Shown here piece after piece: positions 1,354 to 20,309 of a DNA stretch of 64,000 nucleotides. Within the stretch, counting starts at the first letter, position 1. Each line of letters opens with the position of its first letter. The translations under genes were made by a program, and so were the position numbers. The notes beneath the pieces were generated by a model. That model did not search any database, had not been told where the DNA came from, and saw nothing but the letters and a program-made list of their open reading frames with translations. Source of the stretch: an uncultured Candidatus Saccharibacteria bacterium (GTDB taxonomy: Bacteria > Patescibacteriota > Minisyncoccia > Phycocordibacterales > JACOZG01); contig CAZYLF010000001.1 of NCBI GenBank assembly GCA_964648765.1, positions 229,797 to 293,796 on the forward strand. The letters are read 5' to 3'.

Positions 1354-2988
1354 ATGCCGGCACACAAATACATTTTCGTAATCGGGGGAGTGATGTCGGG
1401 GGTTGGTAAAGGAGTCAGCGCCTCGTCGATCGGGAAAATTTTAAAAGCTCGTGGTTTCAAGGTCAATCCCATGAAGATTGACCCTTATTTAAACGTTGAT
1501 GCCGGCACCATGAATCCGGTGGAACATGGCGAGGTCTTCGTGCTCGATTCTGGTCTTGAGTGCGATCAGGACATGGGGAATTATGAAAGGTTTTTAGACA
1601 TTTCCGTGCCGGCAGAGAATTATATGACGAGTGGAATGGTGTACAAACATGTGATTGATAAGGAGCGGGCGCTTGGTTACGGTGGCAAATGTGTGGATCC
1701 AATTCCTGCTTTGCCTGATGAAATTATGCGCCGTATCGCGCTATCAGTGAACAAAACTAAAACCGATATTTCAGTAATTGAAGTTGGTGGTACAGCGGGG
1801 GAATATCAAAATGCCATCTTTTTTGAATCTGCAAGAATTTTGAAATTACGTCACCCGGATGACGTAATTTTTGTACTCGTGAGTTATCTACCAGTGCCGA
1901 GTAAAATTGGTGAGATGAAGACTAAGCCGACACAATACGCCGTGCGCACATTAAACTCTTACGGCATCCACCCAGATATAATTATTGCTCGTAGCGATAG
2001 GCCGCTTGATAATAAACGCAAAGAGAAGTTAGCCTTCTCGAGTAACGTGCGGGTGGAGAGTATTATTTCGGCGCCGGATATTGATAGCATTTATGATATT
2101 CCAATAAATTTTGAGAAAGATGGTTTGAGCGACACGGTTTTAAAATTATTGAAGACTAAACCAAAAACCACTGATCTTAAAGATTGGCGGCGCGCTTCCG
2201 AGCGGATTAAGAATGCTACTGATGAGGTAAAGATTGGAATTGTGGGTAAATACTTTAAAACTGGTGACTTCATACTTTCGGATGTTTACATTTCTGTTAT
2301 TGAATCGCTCAAGCATGCCTCGGGTAAACTAAATAAAAAGCTAAAAATCACTTGGCTAGATGCTGGTGACTACGAAGTCGAAAATGTTGATCTGAATTAT
2401 CTGAAACAATATGACGGTATTTTGGTACCAGGCGGATTTGGTAATCGGGGAGTGGTGGGGATAAAGAAGGTGATCAAGTTTGCTAGAGAAAATAAGATTC
2501 CTTATTTTGGTCTTTGTTATGGTATGCAACTCGCAGTTGTGGAATTCGCCGAGAACGTGCTCGGGCTTAAAGGTGCGAACACTGTGGAGATTGATCCTAA
2601 AACTCCATATCCAATCATTGATGAAATGCTTGAGCAAAAAGAATTAATTAAAAATAAAAATTATGGTGGCACGATGCGCCTCGGCGCCTACCCATGTGTG
2701 CTTAAGCCAAAAACTTTAGCTTATAAAGCCTATCAAGCCGATAAAATTAGTGAACGCCACCGCCATCGTTATGAGGTGAATAATGCTTATATTGAACAAT
2801 TAGAAAGTGGTGGCCTAATTTTCTCTGGTACTTCACCAAATGGCAAATTGATGGAAATCGCCGAACTCCCCACCAGTGTCCACCCCTTTTTCCTCGGCGT
2901 GCAATTCCATCCCGAATTTAAATCTACCCTTTTAAACCCTCACCCACTTTTCCTCGCTTTTATTAAAGCCTCTTCAAATAAAAAATAA
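1354..2988 (+). CDS. pyrG: CTP synthase
   Basis: 544 aa. The N-terminus KYIFVIGGVMSGVGKG is the PyrG P-loop, and the C-terminal GATase domain has GLCYGMQ and HRHRYEVN. Confidence 0.95.
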   Translation: MPAHKYIFVIGGVMSGVGKGVSASSIGKILKARGFKVNPMKIDPYLNVDAGTMNPVEHGEVFVLDSGLECDQDMGNYERFLDISVPAENYMTSGMVYKHVIDKERALGYGGKCVDPIPALPDEIMRRIALSVNKTKTDISVIEVGGTAGEYQNAIFFESARILKLRHPDDVIFVLVSYLPVPSKIGEMKTKPTQYAVRTLNSYGIHPDIIIARSDRPLDNKRKEKLAFSSNVRVESIISAPDIDSIYDIPINFEKDGLSDTVLKLLKTKPKTTDLKDWRRASERIKNATDEVKIGIVGKYFKTGDFILSDVYISVIESLKHASGKLNKKLKITWLDAGDYEVENVDLNYLKQYDGILVPGGFGNRGVVGIKKVIKFARENKIPYFGLCYGMQLAVVEFAENVLGLKGANTVEIDPKTPYPIIDEMLEQKELIKNKNYGGTMRLGAYPCVLKPKTLAYKAYQADKISERHRHRYEVNNAYIEQLESGGLIFSGTSPNGKLMEIAELPTSVHPFFLGVQFHPEFKSTLLNPHPLFLAFIKASSNKK

Positions 2989-2989
2989 A

Positions 2990-3030
2990 AAGACCCCGCG
3001 AACAAAAGTTCGCGGGGTGTTAGTTTTTTG
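2990..3030. terminator. Bidirectional intrinsic terminator (10-bp GC stem CCCCGCGAAC/GTTCGCGGGG)
   Basis: A perfect hairpin at 2994-3017 is flanked by an A-run upstream and a T-run downstream. It sits between the convergent pyrG gene and the AAA-CYTH gene. Confidence 0.6.
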
Positions 3031-3036
3031 CTTTAA

Positions 3037-4179
3037 TCAATCGTACGGTAACGCTGTATTTTTTGGTGGTCCAAATCGAGAGAGCTGATAGTTTGAGTAT
3101 CTGTCGTCGCCGGTGACTTCCTTACCTATGTCTAACCAAGGAGGTAAAACAATTGGTGCAGAGATATCAGAAACTTCAGCTTCGAGCAAAATTAAACCAT
3201 CGAGTTCAGGGTCCTTACTTACAAAATGATCAAGTTCAAAACGTTGATCACCCAAAATAAAGCAAACTCGAATTTTGGCGATCGGTGAGCAGTCAGGATC
3301 TTTTCGATTTAAGTAATACTCATACTCATTGCGGCCGATTCGCCACTCCTCCTCATCGCGTATACCGAGTGACACTTTTCGCTTTATTGTGCGAAAATAT
3401 AATCCCACTCCTTTGTATGACCAAAGTCTCACTCGCTCTTCATCACCCTCATTACTTGGAAGAAGATAATGTTGCTTGATCTGAATAACTTCATAGTGAA
3501 CAGGAAAGTTATCAAAATCGGGCAGAGAATTTACTTTCCATTTTCGTTCTTTTTCAAGTGGTTTTGGGATTCCGATGATGTTGCAAACATGGTCAAGCGT
3601 TTTTTTGTACTTAAGCTCAAAATCATCTTCAGCTGGAATGATGACGTGATGTGGATGACCACACCAAGCATTTTGTACTTTGGCATCACGCTCACGAGCC
3701 AAACTCTCATTTTCAGTACGTGCCGGATTATTAGCTCGAGTATAGTGAGCCTCAGCACCACAAGCAGCACTGCGTAAGTGGAGTACGGCGTCATAACGAT
3801 TAATCAATTCTCCAACTTCAGTACCAAGCTCACGAGCAATGATCTGAAACTCATGCGGTTCCACATAAGCCAAACAATCAAGAGCCGCACGATCACAAAG
3901 GAGAATGCTTTGTTCACCATCTTTAACCATCTGCTCTAAACTGTGGAGCATAATATCTTCAAGATGAAGAATGGTGGCCAATACTGAATACTGAAAAAAA
4001 GTAATCTTTAACCCCTTCTCGCCAACATTTACTCCGTGGGTTAGCAGTAAAGTGGCCGTTTCCGGCACCAAAACCACACGCACTCCACGCTCACCCAAAA
4101 ACTGGATTAAACGAGTCATTATGGTAGTTTTGCCACCACCAGGGCCGCCAGTAAGCACAATTACTTTAGGTTTTATCAA
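3037..4179 (-). CDS. P-loop ATPase/kinase (AAA_28/NadR-like) fused to C-terminal CYTH (triphosphate tunnel metalloenzyme) domain
   Basis: The start is TTG with an AGGAGGTG RBS. The N-terminus has Walker A VLTGGPGGGKTT. The C-terminal half has EKERKWKV (the CYTH ExExK signature), a later LLEAEV acidic strand and other CYTH-like strands. Confidence 0.6.
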   Translation of the reverse strand: MIKPKVIVLTGGPGGGKTTIMTRLIQFLGERGVRVVLVPETATLLLTHGVNVGEKGLKITFFQYSVLATILHLEDIMLHSLEQMVKDGEQSILLCDRAALDCLAYVEPHEFQIIARELGTEVGELINRYDAVLHLRSAACGAEAHYTRANNPARTENESLARERDAKVQNAWCGHPHHVIIPAEDDFELKYKKTLDHVCNIIGIPKPLEKERKWKVNSLPDFDNFPVHYEVIQIKQHYLLPSNEGDEERVRLWSYKGVGLYFRTIKRKVSLGIRDEEEWRIGRNEYEYYLNRKDPDCSPIAKIRVCFILGDQRFELDHFVSKDPELDGLILLEAEVSDISAPIVLPPWLDIGKEVTGDDRYSNYQLSRFGPPKNTALPYD

Positions 4180-4264
4180 GGTCCACCTCCTATTTAAAGG
4201 CCAAATTTTGTTTCTTTCAAGAAACTCTAACTCGAATATAGTTTAAGGAAGCGCAATTTGCAAG

Positions 4265-4297
4265 CAATAAAAAATCGCGCTCGGGGTGAGCGCGATA
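4265..4297 (-). terminator. Intrinsic terminator downstream of NUDIX gene
   Basis: A 9-bp stem ATCGCGCTC/GAGCGCGAT is followed by a T-run on the minus strand. Confidence 0.5.
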
Positions 4298-4306
4298 ATA
4301 CAAGTG

Positions 4307-4891
4307 TTACATATTCATTAGCAATTTTACCCTTGGATCGTTGACGACACTAAAAAGTTTGATGTCCACTAGTACTCCAGGTGGTGGGTGATGCAGAAAG
4401 TGATCTGCCTTATCTAGTGGAATGCGGAGCACTTCAATATCCTCACCAGTTTCAAGTTTTGGCTCAATCACTTTAACCGCGTTGAGGCCCAAGTAAACCA
4501 CCATTTGGTCTTCAAGTAACCCAGCATTGAACGGTCCCTGAAAGAGTGGCCCTGGCATAATCGTGGCCGTGTAACCCGTTTCCTCAAGCAGTTCTCGCCC
4601 GGCAAGTTCCACCTCACTTTCCCCGGATTGATCCATTAGCCCGGCGCAAAGTTCTATAACCCAAGCCTGGGCGGGCACACGATAAGTTTTGGTGAGGATG
4701 ATCTCACGATCCGCGGTGACTGCGGCCACGGCGACGATTCTTCCGTGTGTTTTACGTTTAACGCATTCCCATAAACCTTTACCTCCGTCTCGTTTATTAA
4801 CAAAACGGCGGCTAACAACTGAAATGAATTTGCCACTGAAAACTGTTTCTTCCTCCGTGACGATAATCGTTGACTCTCTTTGCTCTGGCAC
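4307..4891 (-). CDS. NUDIX hydrolase
   Basis: A Nudix box GX5EX7RELLEETGY is present (GESEVELAGRELLEETGYTA). Confidence 0.8.
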   Translation of the reverse strand: MPEQRESTIIVTEEETVFSGKFISVVSRRFVNKRDGGKGLWECVKRKTHGRIVAVAAVTADREIILTKTYRVPAQAWVIELCAGLMDQSGESEVELAGRELLEETGYTATIMPGPLFQGPFNAGLLEDQMVVYLGLNAVKVIEPKLETGEDIEVLRIPLDKADHFLHHPPPGVLVDIKLFSVVNDPRVKLLMNM

Positions 4892-4968
4892 TTTTTGATC
4901 CTCCTTAAAAAATTATCTCCACAATGAACAACTTTTTGGAGTCTAGCCTAATAGTAAACGCCAGTCAA

Positions 4969-5640
4969 TTATTTAGCGTTATGGATTTCACCGTCAGCGA
5001 GAGTGATCACGCGGTCGGCGAGTTCGGCAAATTCTGGCTCGTGAGTTACCATCACAATTGTTTGGCCGGCTTTGTTTAATTCCACAAAAGCGTTGAGCAC
5101 CACTTTAGAAGTTTCGCTATCTAGGTTAGCCGTAGGCTCATCAGCAAAAATGATTTTAGGATCATGGCCAATCGCGCGAGCAATTGAAACGCGTTGTTGT
5201 TGACCGCCTGAGAGTTGACTGGGGAGGTTAATTAATTTATCACCCAGACCTACGCGTTCCATCGCCTTCTGGGCTTTGGCTGCGGCTTCGCTTTTTGTTA
5301 AGCCTTGCATTAAGAGAGGGATCATCACGTTCTCAAGCGCGGTGAGGGAGGGGATGAGGGCGTAATCTTGGAAAACGTAACCAAGATCCTCAAGGCGCAT
5401 TTGGGTGCGCTCGTTGCTCGATAAATTAGCAGTTTCAATTCCGTCTATCACAATTGACCCAGAGTTTGGTTGATCAAGTAGACCAAGCTGATAAAGTAAA
5501 GTGCTTTTACCAGACCCAGAGCGCCCGGTAACGGCCAAGAATTCTCCAGCTTTAACGTCTAGGCTCACACCTTTAAGCACCACGAGTTCGCTCGAGTCTC
5601 CGCTTTTAAATGATTTAAATAAATTTTTGACTTGGATCAT
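4969..5640 (-). CDS. ABC transporter ATP-binding protein (MacB/LolD-like)
   Basis: Walker A GRSGSGKST, signature LSGGQQQRVSIARA and Walker B IIFADEPT are all present. Confidence 0.9.
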   Translation of the reverse strand: MIQVKNLFKSFKSGDSSELVVLKGVSLDVKAGEFLAVTGRSGSGKSTLLYQLGLLDQPNSGSIVIDGIETANLSSNERTQMRLEDLGYVFQDYALIPSLTALENVMIPLLMQGLTKSEAAAKAQKAMERVGLGDKLINLPSQLSGGQQQRVSIARAIGHDPKIIFADEPTANLDSETSKVVLNAFVELNKAGQTIVMVTHEPEFAELADRVITLADGEIHNAK

Positions 5641-5644
5641 TTTT

Positions 5645-6913
5645 TTATCTGCCCAATATGGCGTCTAAAGTATTTTGCCTCACCACAATTTTAGCAGGGA
5701 TGTAACCGGCAATAACTGTGGCGATCATTAATAATGCAACCCTGATTGCGGTGCCAGCAGCCGTAACCACCAAGATTCCGTCGCTGAAAGGGAAGTTGAT
5801 AGGGTTAGCATCAAAGTATGGCTTAAGTAATCCAAAAATAATTATGAGTCCAAGTGCCGTACCAAGTACACCATAAAAGATTGCTTGAAGCATATAAGAA
5901 AATTCAATGGCGGTGGCGCTAATTCCAATACCTTTTAAGATTCCAATAAACTTTCGGCGGGTGATAGCGTTAACGAAGATGACAATAAAGATGGTGATGG
6001 AGGCCACCGCGAGACCGATGGAACCAATCACATTGCCGAGCAAGGCGAAAGTTAATTTAATATCGTTTAAGAACTTTGGTTCGGCGTCGTCCGCGGTTTG
6101 CACCTTGGCATAGGTGCCCACACCAGAACCTAAGAGTGAAGCTTTAACTTGGTCAGGAGTAAATCCCGGTTTGGCTTTAATGGCAATTTCATCAACGTTA
6201 AAATCTCCACGGCCAATAAGTTGGCGGAATTGGGTATCAACCATAAAGATGCGCTGATCCACTTCACCAACTTTACTTTTGAGTACACCTTTAATAGTAA
6301 CCTCGCGTTTAATATCGCCAATCGCCAGACGGACTTTGGTGCCGGCGCCCACATTCTCAAGTGTGCGATAACTTGGAGTATCAATAGGCGTGTACTTAAA
6401 TAGCAAATCAGCGCCGATCATAATTTGATCAAAATCAGTGCGAGTTAAATATTCACCCTCGATAATATAATCAGCAATACCGGTGACAGCATTTTCTTCT
6501 TCTGGATTTATCCCTGACACTAAACCACCAGCACTTTCGGTGATGTCGGTTTCTCGTAGCTTAGTTTTGTAATTGGCTTCAATTTTGCCGCCTTGGATGT
6601 AGCGACTAGTGAGTTTGTCTACACTTGGTAGGCTTTTGGCTAGATTGATAATGTCTTGGCTGTGCTCAACAAAAGTGCGTTGGCGAAGAGGGGAGATGAT
6701 GACGTCTGAAGTGTAGCGGCCCTTGTTTGCCTCTACCGAACCCTCAATTAAGCCCACTAAAATTCCGCTAATCACTACTAAGTTTAAAAAAGTGATGGTC
6801 ATCACGAAGATGATGAGCAGGGTTGTCCAGATGTTAGCGCGACGGATGTCGCGGAAGGCCAAAAATGTGCCCACTTTGAGCGAGGTGAGATAATTACTTG
6901 TTGACCTTTTCAT
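5645..6913 (-). CDS. ABC transporter permease, FtsX/MacB-like
   Basis: 422 aa with an N-terminal TM, a large periplasmic domain and a C-terminal three-helix FtsX-like domain. It shares an operon with the ATPase above. Confidence 0.8.
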   Translation of the reverse strand: MKRSTSNYLTSLKVGTFLAFRDIRRANIWTTLLIIFVMTITFLNLVVISGILVGLIEGSVEANKGRYTSDVIISPLRQRTFVEHSQDIINLAKSLPSVDKLTSRYIQGGKIEANYKTKLRETDITESAGGLVSGINPEEENAVTGIADYIIEGEYLTRTDFDQIMIGADLLFKYTPIDTPSYRTLENVGAGTKVRLAIGDIKREVTIKGVLKSKVGEVDQRIFMVDTQFRQLIGRGDFNVDEIAIKAKPGFTPDQVKASLLGSGVGTYAKVQTADDAEPKFLNDIKLTFALLGNVIGSIGLAVASITIFIVIFVNAITRRKFIGILKGIGISATAIEFSYMLQAIFYGVLGTALGLIIIFGLLKPYFDANPINFPFSDGILVVTAAGTAIRVALLMIATVIAGYIPAKIVVRQNTLDAILGR

Positions 6914-6935: not shown

Positions 6936-7172
6936 ATGAAAAACGTAACAATTTATAGCACACCTACTTGCCATTATTGCCACGCCGCCAAAGATTTTTT
7001 TAAGGAAAATAATATTACTTTCACAGATAAAGATGTGGTGGTGGATCGCGCTGCTGGTCAGGAGGCGATTAAAAAGTCAGGTCAGATGGGCGTGCCGGTG
7101 ATTGATGTGGATGGAGAAATTGTTATCGGCTTTGATGAAGAAAAGCTCCGAGAACTTTTGGGAGTGAAGTAG
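6936..7172 (+). CDS. Glutaredoxin-like protein (NrdH/Grx family)
   Basis: 78 aa with a CHYC active-site CxxC motif after a beta-strand (IYSTPTCHYCHAAK), indicating a thioredoxin fold. Confidence 0.75.
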   Translation: MKNVTIYSTPTCHYCHAAKDFFKENNITFTDKDVVVDRAAGQEAIKKSGQMGVPVIDVDGEIVIGFDEEKLRELLGVK

Positions 7173-7182: not shown

Positions 7183-7231
7183 CAAAAAAAGATCCCCGAC
7201 GGCGCGTACGCACCGTCGGGGATTCTCGTTT
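7183..7231. terminator. Bidirectional terminator, copy 1 of the palindromic repeat CCCCGACGG-N10-CCGTCGGGG
   Basis: A hairpin at 7194-7221 has an A-run upstream and a T-rich tract downstream. A near-identical sequence recurs at 8392-8421. Confidence 0.65.
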
Positions 7232-7235
7232 TGCA

Positions 7236-8297
7236 CTAATGGCCAAAAAATCCTCGGCCAAAAGTGTCAGGCATCATGAGGAGCTTAATCCTACGGGCGG
7301 TACAAAGATCAATTACTTTTTGATCATTTTTTGACCCGCTGGTGGTAAAAATCATTTCTACCCCGGCATCAATCAAATGTGCCACGGCATCATTAAATGG
7401 AAAGAATGAGTCGCTATACGCAACGGCACCTCTCATGTGGTGACCGGCGTCTTTTGCGATCATTACCGCAAGTTTAGCTGCCAGCTTCCTGCTTGTTTGC
7501 CCAGAGGCATTGGCGATGATCTGATCGTGCTTGGCAAGTGTGATGGTGTTACTTTTGCTGGTTGATCCAACGGCATAAGCCAGAAGGGCGTTTTTCATCA
7601 TATGTGGCTCAATCTTATCTACGCTGTGGTCAACGATTTCTGACATCATCCCTGGAATTGGGATAAAAGTAAAATTATCCTGCATCAATACTCCACCACG
7701 AACATGGCGAAGAAGACATTCTCGGTCTAAACTCTCCCGACTTAAATTCCGCAATGCTTCATTTTTGGCTAGTCTGGGACGTTTACCTGATTTGCTCTCA
7801 AGAATTTGTAGCACCTCGTCTCGGTCTTCAAAATCTGGAGCCACAACACATGAAAGCATTTTAGCTGCGCTCAAAGCCCTGGCCTCTTTTGGCGTGACTG
7901 TGAAGTTACAAATTACTCCACCACCAAAGATTGCTTCGCGGTCACCACTTAGCATGTGCCAGATTGCATCATACGCTTCGTGCGCTATGCCAGCTCCGCA
8001 CACAGTGCTATGCTTGGCACCTACGCAGATCAGTGGCATGGCATTGTAATTTGCATGCATCACAGCTCCAATTGTGGCGACGGTGCGTACCAGTGCATCA
8101 TGTTGGCATATGTCGTTGTACCCTAACGTCTCAAGACTGGGATGAAAAAGAAACTTACAAAACGAAAGTGGATCGTCATTTTCTCCTTCCGTTTCAAGAT
8201 GGAGAGTGGCCTGTTGTCGAGGGTTCTCACCGTATTTTAGTTTATGGGTTTTCCACCCCGGCTGAACCAACGTATGACCTTTTTCTTCATCTGCCAT
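7236..8297 (-). CDS. Stand-alone AICAR transformylase domain protein (PurH C-terminal domain homologue)
   Basis: The KYGENPRQ motif matches PurH LRYGENPHQ. The C-terminus SDSFFPFNDAV...GVEMIFTTSGSKNDQKVIDLC...RGFFGH matches the PurH C-terminus. No IMP cyclohydrolase (MGS) domain is present. GC content is visibly higher than in neighbouring genes. Confidence 0.7.
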   Translation of the reverse strand: MADEEKGHTLVQPGWKTHKLKYGENPRQQATLHLETEGENDDPLSFCKFLFHPSLETLGYNDICQHDALVRTVATIGAVMHANYNAMPLICVGAKHSTVCGAGIAHEAYDAIWHMLSGDREAIFGGGVICNFTVTPKEARALSAAKMLSCVVAPDFEDRDEVLQILESKSGKRPRLAKNEALRNLSRESLDRECLLRHVRGGVLMQDNFTFIPIPGMMSEIVDHSVDKIEPHMMKNALLAYAVGSTSKSNTITLAKHDQIIANASGQTSRKLAAKLAVMIAKDAGHHMRGAVAYSDSFFPFNDAVAHLIDAGVEMIFTTSGSKNDQKVIDLCTARRIKLLMMPDTFGRGFFGH

Positions 8298-8382
8298 CCT
8301 TATTACCTCCTCAAGAGTTAAAGACCGTATTAGGCATACAATGCCTATCTTCGCTCAGGCTAGCAAAAATCACAATTTTTTA

Positions 8383-8422
8383 CAAAAAAATCCCCCGACG
8401 GCGCGTACGCGCCGTCGGGGGA
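8383..8422 (-). terminator. Terminator, copy 2 of the palindromic repeat (perfect 13-bp stem CCCCCGACGGCGC/GCGCCGTCGGGGG)
   Basis: A perfect palindrome at 8392-8421 is followed by a T-run on the minus strand. It lies downstream of the 8436-8750 gene and upstream of the AICARFT gene. Confidence 0.55.
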
Positions 8423-8435
8423 TTGTGTCATCGGC

Positions 8436-8750
8436 CTAGTGGGCCGCAACTATCTGCTTTATGAGTTTGGAAAGTTGGTGGCAGATTTCATCTGTGGTTT
8501 CTTCGGGCATCGCTTTGAGCACCGGCTCAAGGGTTAGGCGGATACGGTGTATCAACCAGAGGGTTTCAGGATCGCCACCGCTTGTGCGATCCTCAAAGTG
8601 TTCTGGCATCTCAAAATACGAAGACAACATTCCCAGAAACAAGCATGCCTTTTTGATATTTGCTGGTAAGGCAAGCAGCTTCCTCATGTGCACATCATAC
8701 TCATCCAACGTCATACCACTTCGTTCTTCTGCCATTACAATTTCCCCCAA
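8436..8750 (-). CDS. Hypothetical protein
   Basis: A 104-aa ORF with a terminator immediately downstream. I recognise no motif. Confidence 0.4.
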   Translation of the reverse strand: MGEIVMAEERSGMTLDEYDVHMRKLLALPANIKKACLFLGMLSSYFEMPEHFEDRTSGGDPETLWLIHRIRLTLEPVLKAMPEETTDEICHQLSKLIKQIVAAH

Positions 8751-8821: not shown

Positions 8822-9181
8822 TCAAATTTTATGATCATTTACTTCTGGCCCGGCAAGTAAGTGAAGATGGAGGTGAGGCACACGCAAAAAATTCCCCGCG
8901 TTGAAGATCAGTTTAAAATCACTGATACTTTTTTCTATTGCGAGTTTGGCGGCGGTTAAGTTTAGCTTTCCAATTATCTCTGCATCCTCGTTGTTTGCCT
9001 CAGTGATAGAAACTATTAATTTTTTAGGAATGATTAACCAATGGGTAGAGGCAGCAGGGAACTTACTTTTAATTACGATCAAATCATTGTCTTCATAAAT
9101 AAATTCCGCCGGTTCCTCCTTATCAATAATTTTTTGGAATATCGTTTTCATAATTCTATTTAAAATCATGGCTATCGCCAC
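8822..9181 (-). CDS. HIT family (histidine triad) protein
   Basis: The histidine triad HLHLHLL lies near the C-terminus. Confidence 0.8.
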   Translation of the reverse strand: MAIAMILNRIMKTIFQKIIDKEEPAEFIYEDNDLIVIKSKFPAASTHWLIIPKKLIVSITEANNEDAEIIGKLNLTAAKLAIEKSISDFKLIFNAGNFLRVPHLHLHLLAGPEVNDHKI

Positions 9182-9791
9182 TTAACATTTTAATAAACTT
9201 TAAATTAAAGTTAGGTAAAATCCGCTGGCAAAAGTCTTGGGCAAAACTTGGGCCAATGCCGTCGTGCACACCGAAGGCGATTTGGGGTTTGAGTAAAATC
9301 GCGTAATCAATTGCCTGCGAGACCTTCATCCACGGTCCGGCCACGGGGAGAGCGAGTATCTCAACTTCACGATCGGGGTTGGTAAAAGCGTCGCCCGGGT
9401 ACCACAGTCTCCCGTCGATAAAGAATCCGATATTATCTGCCTGCGGCACCGATGAATGCATTTGAGCGTGCTTCTCGCCAATACCAACCACTCGGATTTC
9501 TCCTAGAGTAAAGTTCTGGTTGTGATCGATTTTCTCGTGAGCAATATTTTCTTTAGTTAAAAGCGCGCTCAGGGAATGATTGGTGTAAATTTTTACCTGG
9601 GGATTTTTAGTAAGTAAAATTTTAAGTGACTCAAGATGGTAGTGGTCTTGGTGCTCATGAGTAAATAAAATGTAATCCAAATTTTCAAGTTTGGAGTGAG
9701 CTTCCGCCGTATAAAACCCCGGGTCGGTGAGAATTCTCTTTCCTTTCGTTTCAATCAATAAACAGCAATGTCCAAATTTAGTAATTTTCAT
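9156..9791 (-). CDS. MBL-fold metallo-hydrolase
   Basis: The HEHQDH (HxHxDH) motif is present. The gene overlaps the downstream HIT gene by 26 nt, which suggests an operon. Confidence 0.8.
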   Translation of the reverse strand: MKITKFGHCCLLIETKGKRILTDPGFYTAEAHSKLENLDYILFTHEHQDHYHLESLKILLTKNPQVKIYTNHSLSALLTKENIAHEKIDHNQNFTLGEIRVVGIGEKHAQMHSSVPQADNIGFFIDGRLWYPGDAFTNPDREVEILALPVAGPWMKVSQAIDYAILLKPQIAFGVHDGIGPSFAQDFCQRILPNFNLKFIKMLSGDSHDFK

Positions 9792-9938
9792 GACCCTATT
9801 TTATCATATCTAAATTTTGAAGACTGAGCGTTGCCAAGTTACACAAAACATGATAGTCAGAAGATGGAAATAGACCAGTTGGTGTGCGCTGACTTGGTAA
9901 AATATTGATCATTGTTACTTAACCTAAGGAGTTTGATC

Positions 9939-10631
9939 ATGGCGAAAAAAGCCACAAAGGCTGCGAGAAAGACGTGTTCGGGTTTTAAGGCTGCGGATGT
10001 TAAGCGAACTTGCAAGCGTTTGAGCAGTCTTGGATTCTTCACGGTGGATAAGATTGAGGTCTATCAGGCGTTGGGCTCAGACCAATATCTTAAAGATACG
10101 GATATCTTACTTGGCCGTATGGCTGATTACTTGCTTCCGACAGATGGCTGGGACCTTAAAAGAATCATCTTGGCTGCGCCCAAAAGTAGTGATTTAGTGA
10201 AGCGAGCACAAAAAATGTTGACTAAGCTGGTCAGATCCGAACTGGAGAAGGACAAGAATCTCAGTGAACTCTACATTCTCCGCCAGAAGACAATCTCAGG
10301 TACAAAACTGGAGCAGGCTGTTGAAGAGAGAATTATTGCGATTTACCAGGAACAGATGGCGCGCATCAGGAGTGTTAAGGACGCCTTCTATTTTTGGTTT
10401 GGTCTGCGGGATGTGAACCCCCCAGCGGTTATCAAAACCGAGGCGGCGGAAACCTTTGTTCGCCAAATTCAGAAAGAGGTGGGAAGTGCTGACTTGGTTG
10501 AATGCTCCACTATGCTCAGTTGGGATCTCAGGATGATTGAGAAAGAGATACCGCCGAGTTGTGTGGCGGCACGGGCTACGGTGATTCGGCGTGTGGCTGA
10601 GCTCCTGCGTCCTTCAGAAAAAAAGAAGTAG
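9939..10631 (+). CDS. Hypothetical protein (basic N-terminus)
   Basis: An ATG at 9939 is preceded by AAGGAG at -8. The longer ORF listed in the track starts at TTG 9912. Confidence 0.5.
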   Translation: MAKKATKAARKTCSGFKAADVKRTCKRLSSLGFFTVDKIEVYQALGSDQYLKDTDILLGRMADYLLPTDGWDLKRIILAAPKSSDLVKRAQKMLTKLVRSELEKDKNLSELYILRQKTISGTKLEQAVEERIIAIYQEQMARIRSVKDAFYFWFGLRDVNPPAVIKTEAAETFVRQIQKEVGSADLVECSTMLSWDLRMIEKEIPPSCVAARATVIRRVAELLRPSEKKK

Positions 10632-10717
10632 TTTTGTTTTCAATATAATCGCCTCGAGGGTTTACTGTCGTAAGTTTACGGCGTCAAATCCCGGGGCGGT
10701 TTTTTATCTTGATATTA

Positions 10718-11441: not shown

Positions 11442-12632
11442 ATGGGTTTTAAGTTCCGTTACCTTGATCCAGTGTATGCCGCGATTTTTAGTCGTCATGC
11501 AGTGCTTAGTGAACAAGAGACAAACACCCTTATTGATGAGTTCAAAAGAGCTAAATCCAAAACTAAAAAAGCAAAGTTAATGAATCTTTTAGTTTTGGGT
11601 CACCAGAGATTAGTCGCCTCCATTGCTTTGCGTTACTCGGGGCGCGGAGTCCCACCTGATGATCTTATTCAAGAGGGCAATTTTGGTTTGATGAGGGCAG
11701 TGGAAAAATTTAACTTCACAGAAGCAAAATTTTCTACTTATGCCAGTCTTTGGATTAGATCGAAGGTCCGTCGTGCTTTGATTAACCAAAACGGTAGCCC
11801 GTGTGGTGTGTCAGTTTACGGTTACTATAAATCACCCAGACCAATCCGTGGTGAGTTGTCAAATTGTAATCTTGTGCAAGATAAATCATCTGCTTTACCT
11901 GAAACAAACACTATCGCTCGTGAAGAGTTGGCAGAATGTACACTGAGGCTGAGTAATTTTTTGGGTCTTGTGGCGATAGTTCCGACTAAAGCCAAGTCAC
12001 TCAAGGCTTTCAGACTTTACTATGGGCTAGGGCAATTTAATCCTAGGGCGCATGAAGATGTTGGTAAGATCATGGGTGTAACTCGTCAGAGAGTAAGTCA
12101 GTGGAATGCTCGCACTTGGCACATGCTCACCGTGATGGGTAACACATACGATGATTTGAGTTTGAAGCGGGAGTTCAAAAAGTTTGAGGAGCTTCAAAGC
12201 CTTCTGGGGGAGTTTAAAAAACCAGGCTTGATCAAACCTAAAAAATTCTCTCGCGCTGAAAAGGCGGGAATTTTAAATCGCCTACTCACACTGAAATGGG
12301 GCAAGTCATCTCAGGGTGAGGTCTGGGTAATTGTGTGTGAAATCGCAGATGCATTTGGTGTTTTGCCCGAGGAAGTATATGGACCCGTGAAGGATACACA
12401 TAATCGATCTAAGTCCTGGGTAAGAAAAATCGCAATGTATCTAGTAAGACTTGACCTCGGTCTTACTTGTGAGCGAGTGGCACATTTACTCAGGCTCGGA
12501 AATCCTGGAAAAGTGTCGTCTGCTTTTAACCACTTAAAATCAGAAGTTGATTTTAAGCCTGATTTGGCAAAAAAGATCGAGGCAATCCGGCGAAAGTATC
12601 TGCCGTTGATTAAGAAAGGAGAAACAACCTAA
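11442..12632 (+). CDS. Sigma-70 family RNA polymerase sigma factor with C-terminal DnaA-domain-IV-like extension
   Basis: The RBS is AAGGAGG. Region 2 (DDLIQEGNFGLMRAVEKF...YASLWIRSKVRRAL) and region 4 (VGKIMGVTRQRVSQWNAR) are both recognisable. An extra ~150-aa tail contains KIAMYLVRLDLGLTCERVAHLL...KVSSAFNHLK, which resembles the DnaA C-terminal HTH. Confidence 0.75.
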   Translation: MGFKFRYLDPVYAAIFSRHAVLSEQETNTLIDEFKRAKSKTKKAKLMNLLVLGHQRLVASIALRYSGRGVPPDDLIQEGNFGLMRAVEKFNFTEAKFSTYASLWIRSKVRRALINQNGSPCGVSVYGYYKSPRPIRGELSNCNLVQDKSSALPETNTIAREELAECTLRLSNFLGLVAIVPTKAKSLKAFRLYYGLGQFNPRAHEDVGKIMGVTRQRVSQWNARTWHMLTVMGNTYDDLSLKREFKKFEELQSLLGEFKKPGLIKPKKFSRAEKAGILNRLLTLKWGKSSQGEVWVIVCEIADAFGVLPEEVYGPVKDTHNRSKSWVRKIAMYLVRLDLGLTCERVAHLLRLGNPGKVSSAFNHLKSEVDFKPDLAKKIEAIRRKYLPLIKKGETT

Positions 12633-13427: not shown

Positions 13428-13462
13428 ATTCTGATATTAGCTTAAGTCGACGATATTTTCAA

Positions 13463-13494
13463 TAAAAAAAATGACCGAGCGCGCGGCTCGGTCG
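13463..13494 (-). terminator. Intrinsic terminator (module AAAAAAATGACCGAGC...GCTCGGTC), copy 1
   Basis: Stem GACCGAGC/GCTCGGTC with loop GCGCG is followed by a T-run on the minus strand. Confidence 0.6.
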
Positions 13495-13504
13495 GGGTGT
13501 TTTG

Positions 13505-13945
13505 CTAAATTAACTTACGCAACGCTTTTGTTGTTGATCTTACGGCTTTACGGAAACAGGGTTCACTGAAGCGGCACTGTGAGCAACCCGACACATCAGA
13601 AGCCTTTTTGTTTTTATATAGCCACGCACCAGGTGACCAGTGTCGATTTTCGTTGTAAACGAGTATCGGACCGCCCAGGATACTTACCGGGTACACATCC
13701 ACAATATTGTTGCTTTTGAGGAGCAGCCAAGAGTGATTGCAATTTGGGTAAAAGAAGCCATCTTTGACTTGGAGGTCAAACACTTTCCCCGTGGCCCTAG
13801 CCAAAATGTGACAAGACATGATTATCTTATTTCCGTTAGGATAATCTCCAAGTTCAAGATCGGGGAGTGCCTCAACCGCAGCGCGTATGCGTTTAAAAAT
13901 TTCAATATCAGCCTCCGGAATTCGTGACTGTATCCATGGTGTCAT
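13505..13945 (-). CDS. Hypothetical protein, small paralogous family (GGP[IP][LI][YV] motif) member 1
   Basis: The RBS is AGGAGGTG. The segment HSWLLLKSNNIVDVYPVSILGGPILV aligns with HTFLQLDNNLIVDITADQYGGPPIYV of the 14517-14876 gene. Confidence 0.5.
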   Translation of the reverse strand: MTPWIQSRIPEADIEIFKRIRAAVEALPDLELGDYPNGNKIIMSCHILARATGKVFDLQVKDGFFYPNCNHSWLLLKSNNIVDVYPVSILGGPILVYNENRHWSPGAWLYKNKKASDVSGCSQCRFSEPCFRKAVRSTTKALRKLI

Positions 13946-14007
13946 TCCACACCTCCTTTCTAAAATTTAAACTACTCCTTCTTAGAAAAATGTAAAGGAT
14001 TTAGTGA

Positions 14008-14040
14008 TAAAAAAATGACCGAGCTGCGCTAGCTCGGTCG
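14008..14040 (-). terminator. Intrinsic terminator, copy 2 of the TGACCGAGC module
   Basis: Stem GACCGAGCT/AGCTCGGTC is followed by a T-run. It shares the AAAAAAATGACCGAGC...GCTCGGTCG flanks with copy 1. Confidence 0.6.
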
Positions 14041-14194
14041 AGAGTTACTTCTTTTTCGGTTTTGGTTTAATTCTCCGTCTTATTGACCTGGTTTTTTTCT
14101 TGAGTGGTTTTCGTAAGCAGAGGGGATTATTTTCCTCATTCCATTTTCTCTGCCATATTTCCATGATCTGAGTTACTGTAAGCATCAGTGTCTC

Positions 14195-14461
14195 CTAAAA
14201 AATACCCTTTAATTTGTTATGGTGAAAGACTTGGCGTCCATCCCAAACCCCACAACCCACAGCCGCTGTCTCACAAAAACGATCTTCACCACTTGTGGGG
14301 TCTAGATGATATCCAGCATGCACCAAACCTCCTCGGCTTGGCTCGGCAACATACTGGCCAATAAATATCGGTCCACCGCATATGATACATTTTTCTCGCC
14401 GATACCAAGGAGTGGATTTACAGAGTTTTCGCGCCCGCCATTTTCTTACCCATTTAAACAT
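14195..14461 (-). CDS. Small Cys-rich hypothetical protein (possible zinc ribbon)
   Basis: The start is ATG 14461 with AGGAGG 8 nt upstream, not the longer 14593 start in the track. The protein reads MFKWVRKWRARK...CIICGGP...CETAAVGCG. Confidence 0.5.
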   Translation of the reverse strand: MFKWVRKWRARKLCKSTPWYRREKCIICGGPIFIGQYVAEPSRGGLVHAGYHLDPTSGEDRFCETAAVGCGVWDGRQVFHHNKLKGIF

Positions 14462-14472
14462 TACTATCCTCC

Positions 14473-14521
14473 TAAAAAGTGCCTCAACTTTTATCATATC
14501 CCACCCTTTATAATTTTCAAT
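14473..14521 (-). promoter_or_regulatory. Promoter/5'UTR module copy 1 (TTGAAA-N16-TATGAT then conserved leader and RBS)
   Basis: Read on the minus strand it gives TTGAAAATTATAAAGGGTGGGATATGATAAAAGTTGAGGCACTTTTTAGGAGG-ATG. An approximately 49-bp direct repeat recurs at 14895-14943. Confidence 0.5.
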
Positions 14522-14876
14522 ATTTTCGATAGGGCGGGGTGATTGGTCCAACGTAGATTGGAGGACCGCCATATTGGTCGGCCGTGATATCAACTATTAG
14601 ATTGTTATCAAGTTGCAAGAAGGTGTGCGACTCATCAGCGTATTTACCTTTGATTATTTCTCCTTTTTTGAATAGGTGTTTAAGATAAACCGAGGCTAAT
14701 CCGCAATTTAGATTTGGGAACATCTTTTGTGCTCTAGTGACAAACTCTCGCGGATTTTTCAGCCGGTTATAACTTTGGTATAAATCGATCAATAACTTGG
14801 TATCGAGCGCTCCATTCTCAAAATCCTGTCGAGTTTTCGTCGCAATCAATCTTACCTCATTTATTTGTTTGGACAT
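14517..14876 (-). CDS. Hypothetical protein, small paralogous family member 2
   Basis: An internal ATG at 14876 follows AAGGTGG. The longer ORF start at 14909 lies inside the repeated leader. It is a paralogue of the 13505-13945 gene. Confidence 0.5.
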   Translation of the reverse strand: MSKQINEVRLIATKTRQDFENGALDTKLLIDLYQSYNRLKNPREFVTRAQKMFPNLNCGLASVYLKHLFKKGEIIKGKYADESHTFLQLDNNLIVDITADQYGGPPIYVGPITPPYRKY

Positions 14877-14894
14877 ATACCACCTTACTTTCTG

Positions 14895-14943
14895 TAAAAA
14901 GTGCCTCAACTTTTATCGTATCTCACCCTTTATAATTTTCAAT
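14895..14943 (-). promoter_or_regulatory. Promoter/5'UTR module copy 2
   Basis: Read on the minus strand it gives TTGAAAATTATAAAGGGTGAGATACGATAAAAGTTGAGGCACTTTTTA. It differs from copy 1 at 3 positions. Confidence 0.5.
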
Positions 14944-14982
14944 GATTTAACGCGTCAAAGTTTCTTTTCAGCACTTTTTGAT

Positions 14983-15240
14983 TTAATTACCCCTCGCTAC
15001 GCTCAGAGTGACAATACAATTTTCCACTGCATCTTCTTTGGAGGGGAAGTACTCCTCAAAAGTCTCTGCCCTCCAGTGCCAAGATTTAGTTGTAGGACTA
15101 TACGTACTCCAACTTAGGCACTTTAGTTCTTGGTCGTAGGCATCACTGCCCAAGGGTTGGACTTTCTGAGACTTGCGCCAAAAATAGCCTGTTGTACTCA
15201 GCAAAATGATAACTAAAATTATCAAAATCTTATTTAGCAT
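14983..15240 (-). CDS. Small secreted/membrane-anchored hypothetical protein
   Basis: 85 aa with an N-terminal hydrophobic helix (ILIILVIILLSTTGYF). Confidence 0.4.
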   Translation of the reverse strand: MLNKILIILVIILLSTTGYFWRKSQKVQPLGSDAYDQELKCLSWSTYSPTTKSWHWRAETFEEYFPSKEDAVENCIVTLSVARGN

Positions 15241-15379
15241 GAAATGATATTACCACAGGAATGATCCGATAAAAATACTAGGGCTCTTGAGAGTAATCTG
15301 ATCCTAGTCCTATTACCCTGTTAGGTTTTTATGTGGTTTAACAAAAAAGTTACGTTTTGAATATATTAATTTAGTAGAA

Positions 15380-15736
15380 TCATTTACTGTATAACAGGTA
15401 TGCATGTTTTATAAGTATGTTGTTTATTTGAGCATTTTGTAGTTCCATACTTCCGTGTTCAATAGAGAAAGTACTTTTTATGTTTTTGATAAAGTCATCT
15501 TTGGAATCCAGTAAAACAATTCTGGATAGGTCTCTAAGTTCGTTAGGATTTAGATTTTTTCTGAAGACATTAGCTATCTGGGATAAATCTTCTTGTGTGT
15601 CCAAATTAGAACCACCGATCACAACATCCCACAATGCGTTATCATCTCTTTTAACAATAATAAAAGTAGAAATATCCTTAGTGTTTCTAATTTCACTTAA
15701 GGAAGAACTGAGTTTGTTGATTATTTCTTTTTCCAT
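15380..15736 (-). CDS. Hypothetical protein, downstream partner of HEPN-like gene
   Basis: A 118-aa ORF begins 5 nt after the HEPN-like gene ends. It carries no MNT GSxxRG motif. Confidence 0.45.
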   Translation of the reverse strand: MEKEIINKLSSSLSEIRNTKDISTFIIVKRDDNALWDVVIGGSNLDTQEDLSQIANVFRKNLNPNELRDLSRIVLLDSKDDFIKNIKSTFSIEHGSMELQNAQINNILIKHAYLLYSK

Positions 15737-15740
15737 TTAA

Positions 15741-16157
15741 TTATATTTCTTTCCACAAATACCTCGCTATCCGCTGAGCTGATTTGACCGCCCCACTGGC
15801 TTGGCTGAGCATCATTTTACCCTTAATCGGAGCGTAACGCATTTCAGGATTCCACTGCAACAATATACTCCAGTCAGCTAGATAAGTGCTTTTTATCTTA
15901 TTGCCAATATGCGGCGGAACTTGTTTTAAAAGTTCTTCAAGATTATGAGTCTTTATCCTGGCCACAGCGTTAAACTCTTCATTAGTGTGAGGAATGCCAG
16001 ACAGGCAAATATTTTTACAAATTATTGCCTTTAAAGCTATTTCAATTGCGTATCCGGAGATATACAAAGACCCCTCATACGATTTGTTCTTGAGTAGAAT
16101 TTTTGAGTCTTTGATGCGAGCCCTGGATATTTTATCTAACTCTTGAGTGGATATCAT
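15741..16157 (-). CDS. HEPN-like domain protein
   Basis: 138 aa, all alpha-helical. SYEGSLYISGYAIEIALKAIICK matches the HEPN helix-1/2 pattern, and ARIKTHNLEEL gives an R-x3-HN motif, which is imperfect against Rx4-6H. Confidence 0.45.
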   Translation of the reverse strand: MISTQELDKISRARIKDSKILLKNKSYEGSLYISGYAIEIALKAIICKNICLSGIPHTNEEFNAVARIKTHNLEELLKQVPPHIGNKIKSTYLADWSILLQWNPEMRYAPIKGKMMLSQASGAVKSAQRIARYLWKEI

Positions 16158-16177
16158 GGATTCATTAACTCTCTTGC

Positions 16178-16615
16178 TTAGCGAACCCGTCTTACTTGTA
16201 CAGTTTCGCTCATACCATCTACACTTAGCTCTGTACCATTAATACCGTCAATAACCGTCGCTTCTGGTCTATAGGCGTAATGGTAACTGTATTTGTATTC
16301 AGACTGTTCCCAGATGGTACCATTTTGAAATTCAAATTTTGCATCTTGAAAAAAACCTTTGAAATCAGAGACAATGGGGCCACTCTGAAGCTTGCTTACA
16401 CGGATTACTTCAATAGGTGGGCAACCACTAATCTGGACCTCCAATACCCATTTTCCCGCAGATTTATAAATGCGCACATATGGACGATATGCATATTTGT
16501 ACATGTATTTATAACGCCTTTGCTGCCACACCTGCCCATTGGTCAAATTAAAAACAGCCCCACCGTTAAAACCAGTGAATGCCCCAGAAATCTGACTATT
16601 AATTTCTTGGTCCAT
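16178..16615 (-). CDS. Hypothetical protein with two tandem ~60-aa repeats (F.F.NG.[VI]W.Q..YKY.Y.YAYRP)
   Basis: The internal duplication is visible directly in the translation. Confidence 0.5.
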   Translation of the reverse strand: MDQEINSQISGAFTGFNGGAVFNLTNGQVWQQRRYKYMYKYAYRPYVRIYKSAGKWVLEVQISGCPPIEVIRVSKLQSGPIVSDFKGFFQDAKFEFQNGTIWEQSEYKYSYHYAYRPEATVIDGINGTELSVDGMSETVQVRRVR

Positions 16616-16639
16616 TTTTATAGATTATATCAAAATATT

Positions 16640-16930
16640 AAGTAATAAATGGCCCGCACAAAGCAAGGATATCTTTGTAAAGTTTTTCGAGTGTGACATG
16701 GCTTAACTGCCGGCCAGGACTCTCCCGCGCCTCTTGTCTCGCCGCCGCTCGACTCGGGCTGGGCACCGCCTCGCGAATTTATTTGCTAATAAATTAACGC
16801 TCCGGCGTCCTCGTCCCTGGCGCGAGTGAAGCAGTTCACTCGCTGCCGGCAGTTATCCGCTACGCTCCTAACTGGGGCTCTTGTCTGACGTTAGAACCCT
16901 TTTACTACAAGGTGAGAGCGAGTTTTATTA
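16640..16930. ncRNA. GC-rich, ORF-free, highly structured region; candidate structured RNA of unknown class
   Basis: GC content is well above the ~40% background. A perfect 9-bp hairpin GCGAGTGAA/TTCACTCGC sits at 16821-16842. An AT hairpin AATTTATT/AATAAATT is also present. CTTAACTGCCGGCC (16698-16711) pairs with GCTGCCGGCAGTTA (16844-16857) over long range. No ORF of 60 aa or more is present. Confidence 0.4.
16703..16720. repeat. Direct repeat of the tRNA-Gln 3' end (CTGCCGGCCAGG-ACTC); candidate att site
   Basis: A 12-nt exact match plus ACTC to the plus-strand sequence 26113-26131 (CTGCCGGCCAGGGACTC), which forms the 3' acceptor/T-arm of tRNA-Gln. Confidence 0.45.
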
Positions 16931-16957
16931 TCGTTGCCCAGCATTTGCTATGCAGAG

Positions 16958-17476
16958 CTAAACACCTTTAACCCCACTCTGCTTTTCACTATTGTTCAAG
17001 GTGGCGTTTATTTTCTCCAAGAGTTCACTCGTATTGAAACGTCCGTGATTTTCCAATCTCAATAACGGCAACCCTGCATCTTTGAGCACTCGTTCAACTT
17101 CAACATCTCGGCCCTTGCGGTCCTGCCTCTCGTGCGTGCGGTCATCAAGTTCTATTGCGAGTTTCGGTGAGAGGTATGACTTATCGCACAAAACAAAATC
17201 CACTGATTTCTGGCTTATATGCCGAAAAGCTCCTCGCCAATTTTGCCCCACAACTTTATTGTCTACGATGGATGGAAGATGGACCTGTGGAAAGATGAGA
17301 TATTTTTCTCCCACTGCGACGACAAGAGCATCGTAGCACTCGTGTTCAGCACGAGACATAAAAAAGTTTTTCTGCTTGTATTTATATTTCCGTGGCTCAT
17401 CCACTTTGCCTCGTAAAATCTCTACGAGAACGCCGATGACCACAATGACTGCAACAATAATGAGTATCTTTATCAC
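16958..17476 (-). CDS. DUF2726-like (NERD/restriction-endonuclease-like fold) protein with N-terminal TM
   Basis: The segment FVLCDK...LAIELDDRTHERQDRKGRDVEVERVLKDAGLPLLR resembles the DUF2726 core. Confidence 0.55.
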   Translation of the reverse strand: MIKILIIVAVIVVIGVLVEILRGKVDEPRKYKYKQKNFFMSRAEHECYDALVVAVGEKYLIFPQVHLPSIVDNKVVGQNWRGAFRHISQKSVDFVLCDKSYLSPKLAIELDDRTHERQDRKGRDVEVERVLKDAGLPLLRLENHGRFNTSELLEKINATLNNSEKQSGVKGV

Positions 17477-17523
17477 AAAGACATTTTAACTTATTTTGAT
17501 GATTTACCCCACCCTCGCTCTCA

Positions 17524-18165: not shown

Positions 18166-18189
18166 ATTTTTATAAAGTTATTTTAATAA

Positions 18190-20260: not shown

Positions 20261-20309
20261 AGATTTCTGACTCACGAATGAGTCAAACGAACACAGGTAC
20301 GCTCAAGGC

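Follow-up and report, generated by a model that had tools for sequence, protein, structure and literature searches.

The 64,000-nucleotide window analysed here (positions 229,797 to 293,796 of contig CAZYLF010000001.1, from an uncultured Candidatus Saccharibacteria bacterium) contains a gene for a stand-alone AICAR (5-aminoimidazole-4-carboxamide ribonucleotide, or ZMP) formyltransferase domain, which corresponds to the C-terminal half of PurH and is of the type named PurV. The gene lies between two nearly identical hairpins with the features of intrinsic terminators, and the corresponding site of a sister species holds a single hairpin of this kind and no transformylase. These observations are best explained by a PurV-type enzyme encoded in an insulated unit, the presence or absence of which arose by recombination at the hairpin, within a tract that was replaced as a whole; we give this account, taken in its entirety, a probability of about 70%.

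The PurV-type protein and its relatives

The protein, of 353 residues, carries the motifs KYGENPRQ and SDSFFPFNDAV and the C-terminal motif GRGFFGH, and its sole Pfam match is AICARFT_IMPCHas (PF01808; E = 1.6e-33, profile positions 71–309), with a score of 117 bits against a gathering cut-off of 25, which makes it a member of the AICAR formyltransferase (AICARFT) family. The MGS/IMPCH domain (PF02142) was not found in it by Pfam; the protein begins 20 residues before YGENP, and only 91 nt separate its start codon from the upstream hairpin. PurV is set apart from PurH by the lack of an IMP (inosine monophosphate) cyclohydrolase domain in the same polypeptide, and the window protein falls on the PurV side. 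The original prediction, which had described a formyltransferase-only PurH protein of this length and with these motifs, is thus borne out by the open reading frame (ORF) and by its domain content. A search of the Protein Data Bank (PDB) sequences returned PurH/ATIC chains only, including 1zcz, 4ehi and 3zzm. The AlphaFold (AF2) model of the protein has a mean local confidence (pLDDT) of 82.9 and a predicted template-modelling score (pTM) of 0.86, and the top 21 Foldseek matches of this model are all PurH/ATIC structures, with template-modelling (TM) scores of 0.64–0.76 (approximately 0.75 for the transformylase domains).

When a 24-sequence alignment of the family was used as a profile to align canonical PurH enzymes, residues K95 and H96 coincided with the catalytic Lys-His pair of the enzymes of T. 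maritima, C. jejuni, M. tuberculosis and birds; Lys267 and His268 are the two key catalytic residues of PurH (PMC9525906). All the invariant columns of the family alignment (YGEN, KH, CG, FGG, SxSN, GQxxR, SDSFFPF and RGF..H) are kept in the window protein. The motifs YGENP, SxSN, GQxxR, SD(A/S)FFPF and R-x-F..H are presumably those that bind the substrates, by comparison with ATIC structures. Judging from the conserved catalytic residues and the modelled fold, the protein most likely formylates AICAR: it would move the formyl group of 10-formyl-tetrahydrofolate to AICAR, giving the formylated product FAICAR, and for the conversion of FAICAR into IMP a cyclohydrolase (PurJ or PurO) would have to be encoded elsewhere, should the genome possess one.

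Several observations weigh against this account of the enzyme. The protein scores 164.5 bits against a cut-off of 402, and 127.5 against 528, with the NCBIfam PurH equivalogs (NF002049 / TIGR00355); the matches cover only the C-terminal halves of the models, and the shortfall is expected of a protein that is half as long and divergent. Its closest match among 5.8 billion clusters is 45% identical, and it forms the longest branch in two neighbour-joining trees. It deviates at 25 of the 107 columns that are conserved at 90% or more in the family, including KHGN, which has become KHST, and an altered or lost activity is therefore possible. Finally, no cyclohydrolase, folate or other purine gene was found in the 64 kb, which leaves the metabolic role of the protein unanchored.

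The same facts invite the idea that the protein is decaying, or that it has been repurposed and has no role in purine metabolism, for instance by binding ZMP or folate or by moonlighting. The long branch, the 25 changed positions and the lack of a partner gene in the window would all fit, and the host group generally does without de novo purine synthesis. A precedent for moonlighting is found in Methanosarcina acetivorans, where PurH and aEF2 dimerise 50S ribosomal subunits (PMC12605026; PDB 9ou7). We consider decay or repurposing improbable, given that the ORF is intact and preceded by a strong Shine-Dalgarno sequence, that the universally conserved catalytic and substrate motifs are retained and the core of the AF2 model is confidently folded, and that the altered positions are mostly variable in canonical PurH too (several of the 25, such as those in GQxxR and KHxx).

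Cruz et al. (2019, Genome Biol Evol; PMC6486802), who surveyed 1,403 complete genomes, gave the name purV to stand-alone AICARFT genes and found them in 81 bacterial genomes and 28 archaeal ones, as a rule together with purJ or purO. Of the 81 bacterial genes, 55 lay outside a pur gene context, and the Candidate Phyla Radiation (CPR) is not mentioned in that survey. The window gene resembles those described in encoding AICARFT only, in beginning approximately 20 residues ahead of YGENP, in keeping the catalytic Lys-His and in having no pur neighbours. It differs from them in that the described genes accompany purJ or purO and a purine pathway, whereas no partner is visible in the window, in belonging to a CPR bacterium with a reduced genome, and in being an outlier in sequence, with at most 45% identity to anything. 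The gene is therefore a new and very divergent CPR example of a class that was already catalogued. A search of the literature on purH or AICAR in the CPR returned nothing relevant.

As to its nearest relatives, which the original prediction had left to be looked for, the closest homologues form a family of Patescibacteria proteins of 520–540 residues that combine MGS/IMPCH and AICARFT, are 38–46% identical to the window protein and are mostly annotated as "hypothetical protein". Like the window protein, members of this family score below the NCBIfam PurH cut-off of 402 (344–361 bits for the two full-length proteins tested), and stand-alone derivatives recur among them. Unlike them, the window protein lacks the family signatures DR..Q..TH, KHGN and GQQDRV and is more like canonical PurH at some of the positions concerned, as with GQTSRK, and in the neighbour-joining tree it branches outside all the sampled family members. 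Stand-alone forms of approximately 345–352 residues are dispersed over the family tree. Among 80 metagenome loci of the family, 64 are fused and 16 are purV-only, 11 of the latter having enough upstream DNA for certainty.

Stand-alone MGS-only (purJ-like) proteins were common in Patescibacteria in a profile search. On one contig (L022) purB, purJ (132 aa) and purV (333 aa) adjoin, and purB, which encodes adenylosuccinate lyase, stands directly beside the family gene in L003, in L022 and in a further 9 of the 80 loci, across the tree; this adjacency ties the family to purine-nucleotide metabolism. PurH-like genes are widespread in Patescibacteria, recurrently without the cyclohydrolase half and often beside purB. 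Since these organisms are thought to do without the de novo pathway, one may ask what purpose the final steps of purine synthesis serve in them, and the hypothesis that comes first to mind is salvage of AICAR/ZMP.

In the window itself, the surroundings offer no such partner. Among approximately 60 ORFs scanned with Pfam, which include CTP synthase, ABC transporters, glutaredoxin, HIT, metallo-beta-lactamase-fold and sigma-factor genes and metK, no purine-biosynthesis gene other than purV was found, and a CPR IMPCH profile found no such domain in the six-frame translation of the 64 kb, in agreement with the initial impression that purV had no purine companions here. None of the best 120 PurJ-like proteins of the profile search was traced to the source contig, of which the window covers 64 of 553 kb. 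A candidate role for the window protein is the formylation of AICAR toward IMP, possibly in salvage, with purB and a cyclohydrolase encoded elsewhere.

Two arrangements seen around relatives of the gene deserve mention as observations in their own right. In the genome with the best purV match (L003), the purB-purV pair lies 0.6 kb downstream of a pair of M14 carboxypeptidase genes; such tandem paralogues occur at 5981–7779 of L003, at 27506–29325 of the window and at 4039–5828 of the sister contig L008. In one clade of the CPR PurH-like family, rplJ-rplL is followed immediately, and in the same orientation, by the full-length PurH-like gene, at a median distance of 68 bp from rplL (23 of the 80 metagenome loci; L024–L100). 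This linkage is intriguing in view of the 50S dimer of Methanosarcina, and it may be no more than the conserved synteny of one lineage.

Twin hairpins and the predicted transcription unit

The palindrome CCCCGACGGCGCGTACGC(A/G)CCGTCGGGG occurs at 7194–7221 and 8393–8420 (the cores of pal1 and pal2, respectively) and nowhere else in the window, where 0.00 matches are expected by chance, as estimated from shuffled sequences. The two cores differ at 1 of 28 bases. Read from the minus strand, the RNA of pal1 folds with −38.8 kcal/mol (z = −8.3) and that of pal2 with −35.5 kcal/mol (z = −6.0), and no shuffled sequence folded as stably as either of them. Each hairpin is followed by a run of seven U and begins 11–14 nt past a stop codon: pal2 lies 11 nt beyond the stop of the neighbouring small ORF and pal1 approximately 12 nt beyond that of purV. 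The claim of two near-identical palindromic terminators thus held up, inasmuch as a GC-rich hairpin, an adjoining U tract and a position just past a stop codon are what is expected of an intrinsic terminator. Both are predicted to be strong terminators for the minus strand. On the plus strand the RNA of pal1 is less stable (−34.4 kcal/mol) and contains a C.A mismatch and a poorer U tract, and pal1 is accordingly predicted to be a weaker terminator for the convergent glutaredoxin gene (grx) than for purV.

With a putative terminator on each side, purV would therefore constitute an insulated monocistronic unit. Transcription of the small ORF and of the HIT gene would end at pal2, shielding purV from read-through, and pal1 would terminate purV and, less efficiently, grx. 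The unit would be expressed from its own 91-nt leader, which contains the Shine-Dalgarno sequence GAGGAGG (8306–8312), 8 nt ahead of the ATG, and a presumed promoter. A perfect 7-3-7 inverted repeat, TAGGCAT-ACA-ATGCCTA (8331–8347), lies approximately 35 nt upstream of the ATG and might serve as an operator or form a small hairpin in the RNA. As a point against an autonomous unit, no consensus sigma-70 promoter was recognised in the leader. The leader RNA does not fold with significant stability (z = −0.9), and neither an Rfam family nor a ZTP riboswitch was found in it (up to E = 5, only chance matches on the hairpins).

The closest known counterparts of pal1 and pal2 are the bidirectional Rho-independent terminators of convergent genes, with which they share a GC-rich perfect hairpin, preceded by an A tract and followed by a T tract, and a position 11–14 nt past stop codons; the sister species holds a single, shared version. 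They depart from these in that the terminator is duplicated nearly exactly around one gene, an unusual arrangement that occurs twice in the window. A certain likeness also exists to integron attC sites and to repetitive extragenic palindromic (REP) elements and their mosaics (BIME), since there is one gene per palindrome-bounded unit and the empty site keeps one palindrome; in contrast to those systems, the window has no integron integrase, attC core sites, array or dispersed copies, and its palindromes carry U tracts in terminator orientation. No tyrosine recombinase was found among the window ORFs scanned.

It had been suggested that the palindrome might be a REP-like element. Many dispersed copies would be expected of such an element, and this idea found no support in the searches: the 64 kb contain two adjacent copies only, the GTDB representative genomes (a set that does not include the source genome) yielded one match, on an unrelated Gaiellales contig, and a degenerate version of the palindrome had no matches in the JGI metagenomes or in IMG/VR. 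On this evidence, we read the palindromes as an intrinsic terminator in duplicate and not as a dispersed repeat. The 3' ends of purV and of the small ORF (both end in H-TAG) seemed alike over a longer stretch; as the spacers match at chance level, this was discarded as a coincidence.

The empty site of the sister species and the origin of the difference

The best matches of the permease encoded near purV are found in Paceibacterota, Pacebacteria, Nomurabacteria and Taylorbacteria, which places the window in the Patescibacteria/Paceibacteria. The sister species is represented by contigs L008–L011, whose permease is 96% identical at the amino acid level and which are collinear with positions 3–31550 of the window, with 84–85% DNA identity (blastn). 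There the gene order is RF-1, ABC, FtsX, CTP synthase, ABC, permease, glutaredoxin, a single hairpin (ATCCCCAACGGCGCGCACGCGCCGTTGGGG), a 92-aa ORF and HIT. No transformylase was found between grx and the small ORF of the sister, and no purV orthologue in the sister data as a whole, since nothing exceeds 45% identity in a database that includes the sister assemblies.

The boundaries of the difference are sharp. The alignment of L008 with the window stops at 7221, the right edge of pal1, and restarts at 8732; on its left, the lone hairpin of the sister has the flanking sequence of pal1, and on its right that of pal2. The fact that the sister has exactly one homologous hairpin and no purV suggests that the presence/absence difference arose by recombination at that hairpin, and both window hairpins would descend from one ancestral bidirectional terminator. 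The stretch that cannot be aligned comprises not only purV and pal2 but also the small ORF, which is homologous to that of the sister and only 37% identical to it at the amino acid level, versus 83–96% for the flanking orthologues. So sharply bounded a divergent tract points to recombinational replacement with a more distant relative and not to divergence in place; purV and the small ORF would have been exchanged together with a divergent and compositionally similar relative.

This last qualification follows from the composition of the gene. The original prediction held that purV was noticeably richer in GC than its neighbours, which is not the case: its GC content is 0.465 compared with a mean of 0.438 (standard deviation 0.046) for the 71 window ORFs (z = 0.6, rank 17), its GC content at third codon positions (GC3) is 0.429 compared with a mean of 0.432 (z = −0.04), and its neighbours range from 0.367 (HIT) to 0.480 (NUDIX and the small ORF), with 0.467 for ABC. 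The fit of its synonymous codons in a leave-one-out score is equally typical (z = −0.45), and the lowest codon scores include genes of an element at 19.5–26 kb. The gene is thus no compositional island, and it is unlikely to be a recently acquired, compositionally foreign one of raised GC, as first proposed, even though it is absent from the sister species and has no close homologue anywhere (best 45%): GC, GC3 and codon usage all fall within the ordinary range, and NUDIX, ABC and the small ORF equal or exceed purV in GC. The original prediction had spoken of an insulated single-gene insertion, probably acquired horizontally. The predicted insulation by twin hairpins and the absence from the sister do stand; the composition is typical, a gain is only slightly favoured over a loss, and the divergent tract also takes in the small ORF. 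The locus is better described as a presence/absence polymorphism within a recombination tract of a flexible genome region.

A gain of purV in the lineage of the window is slightly favoured over its loss in that of the sister. pal1 and pal2, 1 base apart, each differ from the hairpin of the sister at 3–4 of the 28 bases (including a compensatory change of a G:C to an A:T pair), which is near the background divergence of 15%; being closer to each other than to the sister hairpin, they mildly favour a duplication after the split of the two species, that is, a gain. Three considerations weigh against this reading of the tract. The polarity argument compares 1 with 3–4 differences in 28 nt (binomial p of approximately 0.06). 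Gene conversion between the two hairpin copies would produce the same pattern of similarity. The GC3 and codon usage of purV, which are like those of native genes, speak against its recent arrival from a distant donor; they point away from a gain, or else to a donor of similar composition, and they agree just as well with a gene that has long been resident and was lost in the sister. As an outgroup for the polarity, relatives with a permease of 65–72% identity (L012–L014, L018–L019 and P0134) showed no synteny at this locus.

The loss scenario is a plausible, if less likely, alternative. It supposes that hairpin-purV-hairpin was the ancestral arrangement and that the sister deleted a 1199-bp unit by recombination between the directly repeated hairpins, one copy being left behind. 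An empty site with exactly one hairpin, with the flanking sequence of pal1 to its left and that of pal2 to its right, is what such a deletion would leave, and the native-like composition of purV agrees with it. Genome reduction is typical of the host group, and many other gene-sized indels, in both directions, separate the two genomes, so that loss is frequent. Under a simple deletion, nevertheless, the similarity of pal1 to pal2 would be unexpected unless the copies had been homogenised, the 37% identity of the small ORF is left unexplained, and the origin of the twin hairpins still has to be accounted for.

The preferred account, replacement of a tract by recombination at the hairpin, must also be set beside a more elaborate one, in which the palindromes are recombination sites of a cassette system, or a repeat of the REP type or of the miniature inverted-repeat transposable element (MITE) type, that moves terminator-gene-terminator units. 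What suggests it is a second twin-terminator unit in the window (Table 1). Its hairpins share the stem GACCGAGC...GCTCGGTC and the flanking A/T tracts, and each is followed by a U tract; they enclose a gene for a protein of 146 aa, for which Pfam, NCBIfam and PADLOC gave no match. The sister lacks this segment from end to end: its two flanking genes adjoin, with no hairpin between them. Two independent twin-hairpin genes therefore occur in 64 kb, both missing from the sister, and a single hairpin remains at the empty purV site, which is the outcome expected of integration or excision of the Campbell type. Terminator-gene-terminator units make up 2 of approximately 7 window-specific segments.

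According to this cassette view, terminator hairpins of Paceibacteria would have a second function as transferable recombination sites: a hairpin-gene-hairpin unit, made up of one gene and its own promoter, would enter and leave genomes at resident terminators by Campbell-type exchange or by template switching at the palindrome, and the orphan PurV would be one cargo. If true, it would explain why both twin-terminator genes of the window are strain-specific, and PurV might let a host-dependent cell use scavenged AICAR/ZMP. We regard it as a long shot. Each hairpin exists in two adjacent copies only, and all the other strong terminators of the window have unrelated stems; the database searches described above for the purV hairpin argue in the same direction; no integrase or transposase lies nearby, the sole recombinase, of the serine type, belonging to a separate element at a distance of 16 kb; and the empty site of the second unit has no hairpin at all. 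In addition, a systematic search of approximately 140 kb of related loci found no twin hairpins around single genes, and the pattern is therefore not shown to be general. The two units are suggestive of a cassette-like flux of genes, which is far from established; if the pattern were general, it would indicate a simple mechanism of cassette exchange in these genomes.

A chimeric join of the purV locus, caused by the palindrome during assembly, is very improbable. Independent Logan contigs from two samples do break exactly at pal2, which they enter from either side, as is expected of a k-mer assembler that meets 36 nt of perfect palindrome. One of them, of 11 kb (L001, from 3 samples), runs unbroken across the left junction (purV-pal1-grx-permease), the right flank is covered by two others (L020 and L021), and all three match the window with 100% identity. 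The contig ends that reach into pal2 number only two; they carry the pal2-specific CCCCC/GGGGG and G at the variable base, and they overlap by 24 nt.

With one hairpin and no gene at the site of the sister, the purV locus is a tidy and fairly ordinary case of gene gain or loss. Its modest value resides in the clean view that it offers, thanks to the empty site of the sister and the sharply bounded replaced tract, of a reduced CPR genome gaining or losing one insulated gene at a terminator hairpin.

Features of the locus and of the rest of the window

The coordinates of the locus and of the second unit are collected in Table 1. PADLOC found no anti-phage defence match for purV or for the small ORF.

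Table 1. Features of the purV locus and of the second twin-terminator unit (positions in the window).
Feature	Position	Strand	Description	Basis
Glutaredoxin gene (grx)	6936..7172	+	Convergent with purV; left flank, 94% amino acid identity to sister	
pal1	7192..7223	-	14-bp stem, GUAC loop, U7; predicted intrinsic terminator of purV	Terminator scan, RNA fold
Tract unaligned to sister at the DNA level	7222..8731		purV, pal2 and small ORF; flanks approximately 85% identical	
purV-type gene	7236..8297	-	353 aa; stop TAG 7236–7238, start ATG 8295–8297	ORF and translation, Pfam PF01808
purV 5' region	8298..8388	-	91 nt; Shine-Dalgarno and inverted repeat; promoter presumed	Sequence
pal2	8389..8424	-	Perfect 36-nt palindrome, then U7; 16 pairs, 12 of them GC	Terminator scan, RNA fold
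Small ORF	8436..8735	-	92–99 aa, no known domain; 37% amino acid identity to sister counterpart	
HIT-family gene	8822..9181	-	Right flank, 83% amino acid identity to sister	
Second twin-terminator unit	13431..14108	-	Hairpins 13473–13493 and 14017–14039; 146-aa gene 13505–13945 between them	

Other differences between the window and the sister species show that gene flux runs both ways, as there are indels in both genomes. Specific to the window are an AAA_28 P-loop gene with NUDIX (2969–4980), a metallo-beta-lactamase-fold gene with a 239-aa ORF (9150–10713), a methyltransferase gene with a 162-aa ORF (26207–27486) and a second methyltransferase gene (30055–30701); HSP20 and HtrA are present in the sister and missing from the window. 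A sigma-70 family gene (11442–12632) is 24% identical at the amino acid level to its positional counterpart in the sister, versus 79–93% for its neighbours, and is another replaced or hypervariable allele.

The largest difference is a block of 11.6 kb (14524–26112) that is absent from the sister and ends at a tRNA-Gln(CTG) gene (26112–26183, 97% conserved). It shows a strong positive AT skew between 20 and 26 kb and encodes a Toprim/primase-like protein of 729 residues and a large serine recombinase (24520–26172), the 3' end of which overlaps the tRNA gene. This block is probably an integrated mobile element together with other accessory genes (HEPN, DUF2726 and SNase).

Two structured RNAs were found in the window: a full-length LOOT RNA (RF03000, 72 bits) at 19319–19441 on the minus strand, which overlaps the annotated 5' end of the SNase-domain ORF (18190–19395), and a SAM (S-adenosylmethionine) riboswitch (RF00162, 59.8 bits) at 31568–31668 on the plus strand, directly upstream of metK (31721–32656). 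From approximately 52800 to 64000, no long closed ORF is listed on the plus strand, which contains the internal repeat families D2, D10 and D15. By comparison with the sister contig L015, where secG is followed by the gene for a protein that is 2419 aa or more in length and contains CBM96, Big_7, PKD and PG_binding domains, this region is predicted to be a giant repetitive surface-protein gene that runs off the end of the window. Finally, a direct repeat of 54 nt with 93% identity (14473–14526 and 14895–14948), located in the 5' regions of the minus-strand ORFs 14195–14593 and 14517–14909, looks like a local tandem duplication.

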